A stretch of 64,000 bases of DNA from Candidatus Saccharimonadota bacterium. Its GTDB lineage: Bacteria > Patescibacteriota > Saccharimonadia > Saccharimonadales > JAQGHD01. The translations under genes were made by a program, and so were the position numbers. The notes beneath the pieces were generated by a model, which was not told the origin of the DNA, ran no database searches, and saw only the letters and a program-made list of their open reading frames with translations. The stretch covers positions 25,202 to 89,201 of the forward strand of contig JAQGHD010000019.1 of assembly GCA_028288965.1 (NCBI GenBank), given 5' to 3'. How positions within the stretch are numbered: position 1 is the first letter of the stretch; each line of letters opens with the position of its first letter. This document shows positions 10,672 through 43,574 of the stretch, in pieces.

Positions 10672-10911
10672 TTAAGTCCCGGTGTAGCTCTTTTAGATTT
10701 TCATAAAGTGCAGGTAATAAACAAGTGTGCCAACAAAGCCCAAAAACCACACCCCGCCGGCTCCACCATGTTGACTGACATTTCGCTTATTGATTAGCAT
10801 TAGATGGCTAGGCGTGAAATGAGTGACTTTGAGTCATATTACAAAGCGCTATTGAGCTAGAGCTTTCCTATTCCCCCGGGAGTATAATTGTAAGAGGCGA
10901 AGGGATGGCTA

Positions 10912-39510: not shown

Positions 39511-39593
39511 ATAGAAGGCCCAAGTGAGAGAGAAAGCGGAAACGCGGATGCGTCCCAAACTTTCCCTCCCACCTGGAAGCCCCTGTTGCTGCC

Positions 39594-39914
39594 TTACGCC
39601 GCCGTTCTGGATGCCTGCGATCTCGCAGCATGCCACAAGAAATAGGCAAGCGCGGCGAAGATCACACCCAGGATGTTGCGCCAGGTGATTGACCGGAAGA
39701 ATGCCCAAAGCAGGAGCATGGCCGAAGCGAAGTAGAGCACGCAGGTAGCCAGCGCATTCTTCGTCAGTTCGTACGTCTCGTACCCAGCGATCGCGACGAC
39801 CACGGCAAAGAGCACGACGAAAAGTGTGCCGGCGTTGTGGCCAGAAACCAGTTGGTGCACGCTGATGAGGCCGGCGACCAAGGCGGCGATGTAGGTAATG
39901 AACTTGGGACTCAT
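39594..39914 (-). CDS. Small 4-TM membrane protein
   Basis: AAGGAG RBS, hydrophobic, C-ending codon bias. Confidence 0.7.
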   Translation of the reverse strand: MSPKFITYIAALVAGLISVHQLVSGHNAGTLFVVLFAVVVAIAGYETYELTKNALATCVLYFASAMLLLWAFFRSITWRNILGVIFAALAYFLWHAARSQASRTAA

Positions 39915-39939
39915 AACATGTCTCCTTGGTAGGGAACGA

Positions 39940-40245
39940 TCAGCGGCCGGAAGGCCGGACAGGTTGGCGAAGCAGACGACGCTGGTCGCGCACGCGGTTG
40001 CGGTGATCGAGATCGAGTGCCAGCCACATGATGACTGCCATGCCTAGGGCAATGGCTGCGATCGAGGCAGGCCTGAGCACGATGCTGTGAGGTTGGTGAT
40101 CGGCCAGGGCCGAAGCAATCTCGCAGAAGGCCGCGGGCAACAGCAAGCTGAGGCCGGTACGCCGCTTGTTCAGTTTGACGATGCAGACCCATGCCAGAGC
40201 AGCAAATGGGATGGCCAAAACAGCAAAGGCGGTACTGTCACTCAT
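39940..40245 (-). CDS. Small 3-TM membrane protein (start MSDST at 40245)
   Basis: AAAGGAAG RBS. The longer ORF-track start would overlap the promoter. Confidence 0.65.
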   Translation of the reverse strand: MSDSTAFAVLAIPFAALAWVCIVKLNKRRTGLSLLLPAAFCEIASALADHQPHSIVLRPASIAAIALGMAVIMWLALDLDHRNRVRDQRRLLRQPVRPSGR

Positions 40246-40273
40246 GAATGAGCACTTCCTTTCCGGTTGGTGT

Positions 40274-40354
40274 AACAGGGAACTTGTGAAGGTTCTTTGG
40301 AGCAACTGCTCGACAAAGTATAGATATAATGGCATAAAATACTAAAAATATCAA
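40274..40354 (-). promoter_or_regulatory. Promoter, 5' hairpin, boxA-like motif and leader strand
   Basis: TTGATA(40349-54)-17-CATTAT, hairpin CTTTG-TC-GAGC-AGTT-GCTC-CAAAG, AACCTTCACAA, then AAGTTCCCTGTT complementary to 39577-39587. Confidence 0.55.
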
Positions 40355-40551: not shown

Positions 40552-40986
40552 ATGAATTCAATCAGTGCGTATGACGTCGCTAACGTCTTTGCTAAGCTGA
40601 CAGATATTGATTCTGGAGAGGTTTTAACGAACCTAAAAATCCAGAAGCTTGTTTACTACGCCCAAGGTTTTCACCTTGCAATGTTTGATAAGCCTCTTTT
40701 TAACGACCCTATTGTTGCGTGGGAGCATGGCCCTGTTGTTGAAGATTTGTACCACAAGCTAAAGGAGCATAAGTCATCACCAGTAATGATAGCTGGCGCA
40801 ATCAACAAAGACATCTCCACTGAACAAATTGAACTCCTTGTAGAGGTCTACGATGTTTACGGTCAGTTTTCAGCATGGAAACTCAGAGACATGACCCATA
40901 ACGAAACTCCTTGGGCAACAACACCAAAAGGTTACGTGATTACTCACGCTAAACTCAAAACATACTTCAAGAATCAGCTCCAGTAA
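40552..40986 (+). CDS. Panacea (DUF4065/SocA-like) antitoxin
   Basis: LTNLKIQKLVYYAQ, AWEHGPVV, SAWKLRDMTH.E.PW. Confidence 0.9.
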   Translation: MNSISAYDVANVFAKLTDIDSGEVLTNLKIQKLVYYAQGFHLAMFDKPLFNDPIVAWEHGPVVEDLYHKLKEHKSSPVMIAGAINKDISTEQIELLVEVYDVYGQFSAWKLRDMTHNETPWATTPKGYVITHAKLKTYFKNQLQ

Positions 40987-41420
40987 TGGATAGACGGCAT
41001 CCGCCTAAGCCGAAGAAAATGAAGGGCGTTTCGTTCAATCAGTCTCAAGTTAGAGTAGCTGAGTCCGCTAGTGCGCATAAGTCTGACCACCCAATATTTT
41101 GTTTGAGATATTTAGTAAATGGATACGACCTAGAGAAATGTGATAAAGAGCAAGCACACTTCTTCGTGAAGAAACTAGCAAATATGGCTCAATTATCATG
41201 GACAGCATTATTGCTTGGTGACCATAAAAGTGGGCTTGGTTTTGAGCCATTACCCAAGGACCAAATAAAAGCCCCATTGCCTGCAATTGTGACCAAGGAT
41301 ATAACTAGTATGCAAGTTATAAGATTTAAGCGTGACTACAGAATTATAGGTTTCAGGAGTGACGATACCTATAGAATTACACATATAGAGTTAGACAGGA
41401 GTGCTTATGACCACGGTTGA
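40986..41420 (+). CDS. Putative RelE-like toxin paired with the Panacea antitoxin
   Basis: Overlapping stop/start (TAATG), basic protein, RF...YRIIGFR....Y.H. Confidence 0.6.
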   Translation: MDRRHPPKPKKMKGVSFNQSQVRVAESASAHKSDHPIFCLRYLVNGYDLEKCDKEQAHFFVKKLANMAQLSWTALLLGDHKSGLGFEPLPKDQIKAPLPAIVTKDITSMQVIRFKRDYRIIGFRSDDTYRITHIELDRSAYDHG

Positions 41421-41462: not shown

Positions 41463-41711
41463 CTAATCAAACGTGCTTCCCAGCCCGTCCCAAAAGAACA
41501 AGGTAAATCGGTACAGTCCTGAAGTTATAATAAAAACAAAACTGGTTAAGGTAAGACTCTGTAGGTACTTCGGGCTAACGGCGTGATGAGTGCCATCTAT
41601 TGACCGCTTTAGTTGGCTCCAAAAGCCCTCGATGGTGTTGGTGTGGACGTTGCCACGTATATATTCAAGCGTTGAATGATTAACCGTTGTGTGGTTGCAG
41701 CCCGCTTGCAT
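41463..41711 (-). pseudogene. IS1595-family transposase C-terminal remnant
   Basis: HTTVNHS..EY.RGNVHTNTIEGFWSQLKRSIDGTHHAVSPKYLQS, truncated and frameshifted. Confidence 0.85.
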
Positions 41712-41723
41712 TCAGAAAAATGA

Positions 41724-41776
41724 TTCGCTTTCGCTCTTTTGAGCTCATCAGTATGAATACACATTCATAAAACGAA
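41724..41776 (-). ncRNA. Type III hammerhead ribozyme (copy A)
   Basis: Minus strand: UUCGU-U-U^ UAUGAAU-GUGU-AUUCAUA CUGAUGA GCUC-AAAA-GAGC GAAA GCGAA. Predicted cut between 41770 and 41769. Confidence 0.85.
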
Positions 41777-41900
41777 AACGACAAATAGACAGAGATAAAG
41801 ATACACAAAGCAGCCAGGGAGGTGGCAAGGCTTTGATATATCAATATCACTGCCTATTTGCCATTCTCGCTTTACCGAGAACTTTTCTCGACCGTCAGTG

Positions 41901-42566
41901 TCAGTTGGCGTCCTGCACAATAAACCCAAACGTCAGGTCATCTTGGTCGCGGAGGTAAGGGAACAGACCCACGTAGGAGGTGCTCAAGCGCCCGGCCGCG
42001 ATCTTGCTGATGACGCTTTCCAGGTGCTGTTTTGCCCGATCTACGTCTGTAACGCGCGTGTCGATGTCCAAGGCTGCTGCCCGGAGTTCGAGCACGTAGC
42101 CCTTGACACCGTCTAGGTCTGTCAATTCGATGGCTACTTGCCTGGTTGCGTCAGCGAAAGCCTGCTGGTCCATGATCTGTTTGGTGATGTGGCTCATTGG
42201 CGTGAACCTTGCAAGGTTGCTGTTGAAGGTGATGATCACCCGGCGGAATGGCCATTCTGTCTGCGGTGTTGCGAGAACACGCTTGTCTCCACGCAAGGGG
42301 AACAAGTCCAACAGATTCTGGGTCGCCCAATCGATGGTAACCTGAACCCACTCTGCAACGGCAGCTGAATTCGTGACGTTGTCACGATACTCAACCGACA
42401 TGTCAAAACGGTTGATGTTGCAGCCAAAGACGCCGTCATGTTGCATAATGCGACCCCTAAGGGGCAGCACTGCATCGCGGTGATCCTCTGAGTTAAAGGT
42501 GCCTGTCTCTTCGTTGATTCCGGTTATAGCCGTATTGAATTCGAACGTGAGAGTCTGATTGGTCAT
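41901..42566 (-). CDS. Hypothetical protein with two similar ~100-aa alpha/beta repeats
   Basis: AGGAG RBS, internal repeat (FEFNT../ITFNS.., HDGV/LDGV, LFPLRG/LFPYLR). Confidence 0.75.
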   Translation of the reverse strand: MTNQTLTFEFNTAITGINEETGTFNSEDHRDAVLPLRGRIMQHDGVFGCNINRFDMSVEYRDNVTNSAAVAEWVQVTIDWATQNLLDLFPLRGDKRVLATPQTEWPFRRVIITFNSNLARFTPMSHITKQIMDQQAFADATRQVAIELTDLDGVKGYVLELRAAALDIDTRVTDVDRAKQHLESVISKIAAGRLSTSYVGLFPYLRDQDDLTFGFIVQDAN

Positions 42567-42686
42567 GTTGGCTCCTGCTTCAACTCACCTGACTGTTTGT
42601 CCCAACTGACGTTGGCGCGTATCCATAATGAACACACAAAGTGAGATACCAAGACGCATGGGTGTCCTAGTAACTCACTTTGTGTT

Positions 42687-42773
42687 TCTGTCTATTTGTC
42701 AAATAACACCTTTGGAACCCATTGGCTCAACAAAAGCAAACATTATATTACCATATAATCATAAAAAAGTCCA
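42687..42773 (-). promoter_or_regulatory. Promoter, conserved 5' hairpin, boxA-like motif and leader strand (unit A)
   Basis: TGGACT(42768-73)-17-TAATAT, 44-nt block 42696-42739 repeated at 43497-43540, TGTTATTTGACAA, 42687-42700 is a perfect inverted repeat of 41780-41793. Confidence 0.75.
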
Positions 42774-42792
42774 CAATCTGTTTGGACGGTTA

Positions 42793-42843
42793 CCGCTTTC
42801 GCTCTTTTGAGCTCATCAGTATGAATACACATTCATAAAGCAG
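42793..42843 (-). ncRNA. Type III hammerhead ribozyme (copy B)
   Basis: Minus strand: CUGC-U-U^ UAUGAAU-GUGU-AUUCAUA CUGAUGA GCUC-AAAA-GAGC GAAA GCGG. Predicted cut between 42838 and 42837. Stem III differs from copy A but still pairs. Confidence 0.85.
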
Positions 42844-42946
42844 AAATGACGACCAGACAGGAGTTTAGGGTAGAGGGATGACCACAAGGGTCAAACGTCT
42901 AGTTTCCTAAACTGCTCCCTGATGGTCATTTTTGCGCGCGATAACG

Positions 42947-43378
42947 CTATCCGTTATCGCACAAGCGTGGGGTCTGTTGAGACGCCGGCAGCTTGTTGAA
43001 ACTGAGGATGTTCTTGAACGACGAGAAGAGCGGCACACGCCAACCCTTGATTTGCACGCTGTACGTCGTCTCGGGCTGGATCTTGCCGTAGGCGTCGGCA
43101 GTGTTAAACCGTGTCTTGCCGAACAGCGAGTCCTTCATGACAAACGTGCCACCACTGGTGTAGATGCGGTATTCGCCGCCGTTTTGGGTAGCTACGCGCT
43201 CCTTGCTGCACACCGTCAGCACGCGAGTGCTGATGTGGTTGTAGTTGTGGAAGATGGCAGAGATGCCGACTACGAGGGCCAAAACGACCGCCGCAATGGC
43301 AACTGCACAACCCGCGCCCTGGAAATTCTCTCGACGACGAGCCCGATACTGGTTCGCATCACTAGTTCTCATGGACAT
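42947..43378 (-). CDS. Membrane-anchored DUF1523-like protein (phage-associated type)
   Basis: TM helix then TV.SKER..YRIYT..GTF..KDS..RFN.AD.YG......Y.....GWRVP.FS.F.NI, AAAGGAAG RBS. Confidence 0.65.
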   Translation of the reverse strand: MSMRTSDANQYRARRRENFQGAGCAVAIAAVVLALVVGISAIFHNYNHISTRVLTVCSKERVATQNGGEYRIYTSGGTFVMKDSLFGKTRFNTADAYGKIQPETTYSVQIKGWRVPLFSSFKNILSFNKLPASQQTPRLCDNG

Positions 43379-43489
43379 AGGGTCTTCCTTTCTCCTCTCC
43401 TCGGCATACAGCCTAAGGTGTTTATCCTAAACACACAAGGTGAGGAACAAAAGTACAATAATTATACGTTTGGTGCTCACCTTGTGCTT

Positions 43490-43574
43490 TGTCTGGTTGT
43501 CAAATAACACCTTTGGAACCGATTGGCTCAACAAAAGCAATGTAGATAATAACATAAAAATGCGCAAAAGTCCA
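43490..43574 (-). promoter_or_regulatory. Promoter, conserved 5' hairpin, boxA-like motif and leader strand (unit B)
   Basis: TGGACT(43569-74)-17-TATTAT, same 44-nt block, 43490-43501 pairs 11/12 with 42848-42859. Confidence 0.75.

Follow-up and report, generated by a model that had tools for sequence, protein, structure and literature searches.

Two tandem gene units on the minus strand of a 64,000-nucleotide stretch of Candidatus Saccharimonadota DNA (hereafter the window, meaning that entire stretch) each end in a type III hammerhead ribozyme, and both ribozymes belong to a covarying family of the order Saccharimonadales in which part of the cassettes carry a leader strand complementary to an arm located just ahead of the predicted cleavage site. 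When compared across cassettes, this leader-arm complementarity covaries as well and is kept in a fixed register.

Based upon these features, a mechanism can be proposed. Each unit is a one-gene cassette in which a promoter-like site and a structured leader precede a GC3-rich ORF, with a type III hammerhead behind it. Once transcribed, the hammerhead would cut the mRNA tail behind the ORF and RNase J would degrade the 5'-OH run-through RNA; in this lineage, in which no Rho was detected, the ribozyme would thereby take the place of a terminator. The leader helix would favor the active fold, of which it would itself form part, and would subsequently clasp the two termini of the cleaved mRNA together, with 9 nt bearing a cyclic phosphate left over as a tail. 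Such a terminus may block PNPase. We consider this combined reading to have slightly better than even chances of being correct.

Hammerheads and cassette anatomy in the window

The initial annotation had proposed two minus-strand hammerheads, and both were borne out, with the core, stems, and cleavage triplets located where it had described them (Table 1). It had likewise placed the differences between the copies in stem III with pairing preserved, which holds true; the core, stem I, and stem II are identical in the two copies. The conserved core of C3 U4 G5 A6 N7 G8 A9, G12 A13 A14, A15.1-U16.1, and H17 is found in both window copies. Both window copies carry U17, which is rare in the family (11/95). 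Stem I is present, but it is better drawn as 6 bp closed by a UGUGUA loop than as the 7 bp with a GUGU loop given originally, because all such hexaloops of stem I in the family (72/72) begin with U.

The Rfam search suggested at the outset gave a mixed outcome. RF00008 matches both copies, but at 29.8 bits (E 0.00093) and 23.7 bits (E 0.05) compared to a gathering score of 48.5 bits, and because neither score reaches this cut-off, a gathering-level scan of the window misses both. The copies resemble RF00008 (clan CL00010) in having the full core, three stems of which stem III is open, an NUH triplet, a loop 1 5' U, and a loop 2 3' A, whereas they differ in their sub-gathering scores, their U17, and their location within competing long-range helices. 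The window motifs are therefore best described as hammerheads by anatomy, as opposed to Rfam-curated RF00008 matches, and it is the comparison across copies and genomes that confirms them at the sequence level. A loose core pattern was discarded as evidence due to too many chance matches (5 in the window vs. 2.96 expected, which is not above chance).

Table 1. Features of the two cassettes in the window
Feature	Positions	Strand	Remarks
Unit A promoter-like site	43546..43574	minus	TGGACT-17-TATTAT, TG extension; consensus match only
Unit A 5'-terminal hairpin H0	43509..43538	minus	
Unit A leader strand	43489..43502	minus	
Unit A 5' UTR hairpin H1	43434..43486	minus	
Unit A cargo ORF A	42947..43378	minus	143 aa; phrog_301 'secreted protein' / DUF1523-like; GC3 0.74; SD-like purine run
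Unit A local masking hairpin	42840..42935	minus	arms 42906-42935 and 42840-42869
Unit A 3' arm	42847..42860	minus	complementary to leader 43489-43502 at 12/14
Hammerhead copy A, type III	42793..42843	minus	CUU triplet; predicted cut between 42838 and 42837
Unit B promoter-like site	42742..42773	minus	TGGACT then TAATATAAT; homolog of the unit A site; absent from consensus scan
Unit B 5'-terminal hairpin H0	42708..42737	minus	
Unit B leader strand	42688..42701	minus	pairs with 3' arm
Unit B 5' UTR hairpin H1	42634..42685	minus	
Unit B cargo ORF B	41901..42566	minus	221 aa; no family; GC3 0.67; SD-like AGGAG
Unit B local masking hairpin	41768..41874	minus	arms 41839-41874 and 41768-41803; covers 3' arm, stem III, cut site
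Unit B 3' arm	41779..41792	minus	complementary to leader 42688-42701 at 14/14; starts 10 nt before cut
Hammerhead copy B, type III	41724..41776	minus	UUU triplet; predicted cut between 41770 and 41769

Both units are organized in the same order. They begin with the promoter-like site, followed by the 5' hairpin H0, the leader strand, and hairpin H1; the SD-led ORF comes next, and a small hairpin, a long 3' hairpin, and the hammerhead close the unit. Their 87-nt upstream blocks are 80% identical and their 67-nt ends 90% identical, while the ORFs are unrelated. The placement of the hammerheads at the 3' ends of the units, as originally claimed, is supported, and each unit has its own promoter-like site; the consensus scan for promoters found 4 sites vs. 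4.6 expected in shuffles. Pairing of H0 with the ribozyme core appears in the minimum free energy folds of both window units, but it is not claimed here, as the C30 copy has a different stem II.

The units sit in a 4.1-kb insert between a murI gene and a gene that, judging from its sequence, we take to be folD-like. Among 25 relatives, the folD-like gene lies <1.5 kb from murI in 23 and a hammerhead is found there in none. The same insert holds a SocA/Panacea antitoxin with its phrog_8366 partner (40552-41420) and an IS1595 transposase fragment (41463-41711), in addition to orphans, whereas no recognizable phage genes and no prophage or integrase context were found in it. A third GC3-rich unit is located on the minus strand at 39530-40340, with ORFs at 39940-40245 (GC3 0.69) and 39594-39914 (GC3 0.77); its leader carries an H0-type hairpin and its trailer a GC hairpin, but a hammerhead is lacking. 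Another hammerhead-less unit, on contig C4 of the source genome (864-1020), has a 3' hairpin arm of the same sequence as that of the C30 cassette.

The hammerhead family and its leader-arm complementarity

The source genome (0.92 Mb, 94% complete) encodes 8 canonical hammerhead copies. Across the order, a strict hammerhead pattern is present in 115/401 genomes, with up to 22 matches in a single genome and 1 match for the reversed-pattern control, and outside the class it is present in 23/375; both tallies count kin, and the former takes in two unpublished genomes. From the listed matches, 80 stretches were hand-picked, favoring window-like stem II types, which together with three contigs of the source genome yielded 102 hammerhead matches, 95 of which parse as type III. 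Nearly all of the latter (90/95) lie behind an ORF, at a median stop-to-cut distance of 112 nt.

Several features of this sample bear upon selection. Firstly, N17 is C in 76, U in 11, and A in 8 of the type III copies, and G in none; G17 is described as impairing minimal hammerheads (PMC3884650). Secondly, among 24 aligned hand-picked copies, 97.5% of the cells are paired and two-sided changes occur in 12/15 pairs, which was equaled in 0/500 shuffles. Covariation extends to all three stems across relatives, with stems I and II closed and stem III open, although stem II is partly fixed by the search pattern. Thirdly, the signature of a loop 1-loop 2 contact (5' U, 3' A) is present, the loop 2 A being fixed by the search pattern, and the motif with its loop 1 5' U matches one described in PMC2632901. 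Because N17 is never G, the stems covary, and the loop 1 U is constant, the family looks to be selected for cleavage.

Some variation in arrangement was also encountered. A ninth, variant hammerhead of the source genome (contig C25, ~10780-10825, plus strand), located behind a GC3-rich ORF of 682 aa, has U15.1-A16.1 and a GAC triplet; such variants are reported to cleave weakly (PMC3088659). In another genome of the sample (G231, contig C1, 156560-156653), two hammerheads on opposite strands, ~50 nt apart, face each other and end convergent units. Contig C1 of the source genome holds five hammerhead-ended units around a VirD4/TraD-like gene (L001, 2345-17023), adjoined by a sigma-70-like gene. 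Among their cargo are a ubiquitin-like/ThiF/JAB operon, a ParB/GmrSD-like gene, and a phospholipase A2 that carries a ricin-type lectin domain, and one of these cargo operons recurs ahead of hammerheads at two further loci (L219 and L226).

The initial annotation had placed the cleavage site about 10 nt past a long-range helix, and this offset turns out to be a family-wide feature. The best distant complement of the trailer falls in register just behind the -10 box in 28/94 cassettes vs. 10/549 controls, but the swapped control of this test is circular and it was replaced by one in which the promoter-like site is defined from sequence alone, as could be done in 67/95 cassettes. In this non-circular test, 24/67 cassettes pair with their own arm at no fewer than 10/11 Watson-Crick positions, compared to 2.4% for swapped arms and a permutation mean of 1.9 (maximum 7 in 10000). 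The number of such cassettes peaks at 10 nt before the cut (24); 17 are found with the register set to 13 nt and 6 with it set to 7 nt, whereas none are found for 4, 25, or 30 nt (n=67). By taxon, the pairing is found in 23/56 cassettes of the order (17/33 genomes), in the 1 cassette from elsewhere in the class, and in 0/10 from other classes; viral-contig hammerheads have it in 0/39 testable copies. An in-register leader is absent by the Watson-Crick test from the other 43/67 cassettes. A max-of-25 control, which is blurred by shared leader sequences, placed the own arm above control in 13/94. Searches with the leader itself were uninformative: a 17-nt pattern, swamped by chance, had a hammerhead downstream in 0/176 matches from genome and viral contigs, and a 29-nt pattern found nothing in metagenomes.

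Transcript ends and predicted masking of the ribozyme

No terminator-like site was found 3' of ORF A or ORF B on the minus strand, and an intrinsic terminator (GC hairpin plus U-tract) is lacking in both window units, in agreement with the initial annotation. However, this absence is not special. Terminator-like sites are found in 0 cassettes of the source genome and overall in 7/90 before the cut and 9/90 after it, and because the convergent gene ends of the source genome have such sites no more often than random stretches do (12/182 vs. 12/150, using crude ORF calls), a missing terminator is not diagnostic. Rho was detected in 0/71 genomes of the order, whereas RNase J was detected in 71/71. 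The source genome encodes PNPase and RNase III, while RNase R, RtcB, RNA ligase, and reverse transcriptase (RT) were not found in its 94%-complete assembly. Two full-length RNase J genes are present in this 0.92-Mb genome (C14 17230 and C24 20587).

It had also been proposed that self-cleavage defines the mRNA 3' end and insulates the downstream unit. Selected-looking ribozymes at unit 3' ends are consistent with the first part, but insulation would need an added step, presumably supplied by RNase J, because self-cleavage alone does not stop RNA polymerase. A precedent exists in the glmS ribozyme, whose 5'-OH product is degraded by RNase J1 (PMC3997798), much like the 5'-OH fragment predicted here would be an RNase J substrate. 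RNase J1 is also described as dislodging stalled polymerase, whereas its action on elongating complexes is stated to be unknown (PMC10810187). The glmS ribozyme, as described in these two reports, cleaves within the 5' UTR in response to a metabolite, and the ORF is thereby destroyed, whereas a cut behind the ORF would remove run-through.

In both window units, a local hairpin of 30-36 bp competes for the 3' arm and covers stem III, as well as the cut site in copy B. The predicted duplex energies favor the local over the leader pairing (-44.6 vs. -31.7 in unit B; -33.8 vs. -27.5 in unit A). For unit A, forcing the ribozyme fold is predicted to cost 12.3 kcal/mol in the isolated trailer, 5.9 kcal/mol in the full transcript, and 5.3 kcal/mol when the ORF is kept open; the corresponding values for unit B are 10.0, 16.3, and 13.2 kcal/mol. 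Tertiary contacts, Mg2+, and co-transcriptional folding do not enter into these energies. Thus, the naked window RNAs are predicted to disfavor the ribozyme fold by 5-16 kcal/mol, and because the local hairpin competes for the same 3' arm, cleavage of the window copies is predicted to be slow or conditional upon leader pairing. When the ribozyme fold is forced, both units are predicted to use the leader helix. After cleavage, unit A is predicted to keep it (p 0.9 or more), while unit B would adopt the local hairpin (p 1.0) and not the clasp. According to the same models, masking is a minority trait of the family. It amounts to at least 9 kcal/mol in 12/95 trailers, both window copies included, to at least 5 kcal/mol in 27/95, and to at most 1 kcal/mol in 33/95. 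Several features count against the proposed mechanism: both window copies carry U17 and are predicted to be masked, the clasp is not predicted for unit B after the cut, the leader lowers the fold cost in only 13/23 cassettes, most cassettes of the promoter-based test lack an in-register leader, and U-tract terminators are missing from ordinary genes as well.

Among the alternatives, a conformational switch is the most probable, although we judge it unlikely. The local hairpin would represent the off state and leader pairing, brought about via translation or a factor, the on state, such that cleavage would regulate mRNA fate rather than just trim the message, and the long hairpin may feed RNase III, which the source genome encodes. 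The coverage of stem III in both window copies, the stronger local duplex, and the 27/95 copies masked by at least 5 kcal/mol all agree with a switch, as does the report that a 14-bp pairing of the 5' UTR with the 3' UTR modulates cleavage of the Bacillus subtilis hbs mRNA (PMC5737220). As a general explanation it is opposed by the 33/95 copies with little or no masking, by several leader-paired cassettes that have no competing hairpin, and by the effect of the leader itself, which lowers the fold cost in only 13 of the 23 cassettes and raises it for unit B.

It is more doubtful still that the window copies are attenuated or dead relics, with the local hairpin alone now ending the mRNA. U17 in both copies and the predicted masking could be taken as decay, the same insert contains the IS1595 fragment, and units that share the leader or the 3' hairpin but lack a hammerhead occur in the source genome. 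However, both cores are intact and identical, and stem III, the leader, and the arm differ between the units with pairing kept. Furthermore, the strong masking recurs in the family and 8 of the 12 trailers concerned have C17 or A17.

Cargo genes and relation to known systems

The cargo of the cassettes is highly diverse. The 90 cargo ORFs fall into 84 clusters, and the last ORF ahead of the ribozyme has a Pfam match in 7/83 cases and a PHROG match in 7/83. Searches of metagenome and viral contigs with the cargo proteins found no related loci. The best phage matches of ORF A are to actinophages in 27/50 records, and 1/6 of its homologs in the order has a hammerhead directly 3'. Two homologs of ORF B were found (39-41%), while ORF B yielded no Atlas match at 0.9 or TM 0.5, no PADLOC match, and no family. 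Median cargo GC3 is 0.67 vs. 0.46 for neighbors and 0.50 genome-wide (0.44-0.52 for ribosomal-protein genes), and a 5-mer SD precedes 27/75 cargo genes vs. 9/138 comparison genes. Since 18/30 GC3-rich genes of the source genome lie outside any unit ended by a canonical hammerhead, the ribozyme is dispensable, which also counts against the proposed mechanism. The neighbors of the 80 loci include a VirD4/TraD-like ATPase (6/80), a DprA-like protein (6/80), and a TopA-like protein (5/80).

These cargo traits, together with the detection of the clasp only in this class and the VirD4/TraD-like neighbors, could suggest that cut, clasped mRNAs are made for export and translated in the host bacterium, which we regard as very improbable. 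In its fullest form, equally improbable in our estimate, the cyclic-phosphate end and leader clasp of host-tuned mRNAs would act as a nuclease-resistant export tag, and an mRNA effector with phage-like takeover genes would be delivered to the host. However, foreign origin accounts for the elevated GC3, which hammerhead-less cassettes share, the DprA-like and TopA-like neighbors are as frequent as the VirD4-like ones, and we know of no RNA export route. SD usage failed as a pointer to host ribosomes, as the ribosomal-protein genes of the source genome themselves use strong SD sequences and the order keeps the anti-SD (2 matches in genome G039). Loss of the anti-SD is reported for part of the Parcubacteria (PMC9297842).

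The least probable reading, that the units are RNA-mobilized elements (retrozyme-like or circular) capturing genes, would fit the tandem units with homologous flanks and unrelated, rarely repeated cargo, the site empty in relatives, and the high copy numbers, but several observations oppose it. RT, RtcB, and RNA ligase were not found in the source genome, and RtcB and RT were found in 0/5 and 2/5 of the copy-rich genomes (neither of them in G189, with 22 copies, or G231). Each unit keeps a single ribozyme, and it retains its promoter as well as the half of the ribozyme that would be lost upon cleavage. A terminal direct repeat is absent among the 20 repeat families shown. Retrozymes and viroid-like circles resemble the cassettes in that the hammerhead lies within a rod-like RNA with paired ends. 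The cassettes differ from these in that each unit has a single ribozyme, the opposite strand has none, and a DNA promoter is included. Ribozymes at both ends or in both polarities, accompanied by RT or ligase, were not found in the genomes searched, which are incomplete.

Returning to the proposed mechanism, its parts have partial counterparts elsewhere. The hbs mRNA resembles the cassettes in that a 14-bp helix between its UTRs affects RNA cleavage, but as described it involves RNase Y and one conserved gene (PMC5737220), whereas in the cassettes a ribozyme is involved, the register is fixed at 10 nt, and the cargo is interchangeable. Prophage hammerheads are described as flanking variable small single genes or short blocks, in tandem, and some show activity in vitro as well as in E. 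coli; it was proposed that they divide long RNAs into mRNAs of gene length (Perreault et al. 2011, PMC3088659). The window ribozymes likewise adjoin variable single genes, but their units have their own promoter-like sites and lie between housekeeping genes, and the covarying leader-arm helix of the cassettes was not seen in the phage copies. Thus, hammerheads after phage genes are already published, whereas the clasped form was not found in the open-access literature. No paper on clasped cassettes came up there for hammerheads or ribozymes in Patescibacteria, Saccharibacteria, or CPR bacteria, although the supplementary alignments of PMC3088659, PMC5737381, and PMC10085705 may already list some of the sequences concerned, and the available text of a TM7x transcriptome preprint (10.1101/2022.03.25.485537) contains no mention of ribozymes.

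The function of genomic bacterial hammerheads has been described as unclear (PMC3088659). With considerably more than 100 natural copies from a single lineage, a covarying architecture, and exact predicted cut sites, the present family turns this question into a simple assay. It also bears upon how transcripts end in an order where Rho was not detected and U-tract terminators are scarce, and a natural hammerhead coupled to the 5' end of its own mRNA would, if true, represent a new kind of regulatory layout. In viral sequences, the stricter family patterns matched 0 contigs. A compact hammerhead pattern in IMG/VR matched 50 distinct copies, 48 of them type III, and 26/50 lie 14-64 nt behind a stop codon, in most cases with a short GC hairpin ahead of them. 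This module, a type III hammerhead preceded by a stop codon and a short GC hairpin, can be found there behind small genes in many unrelated viral contigs.
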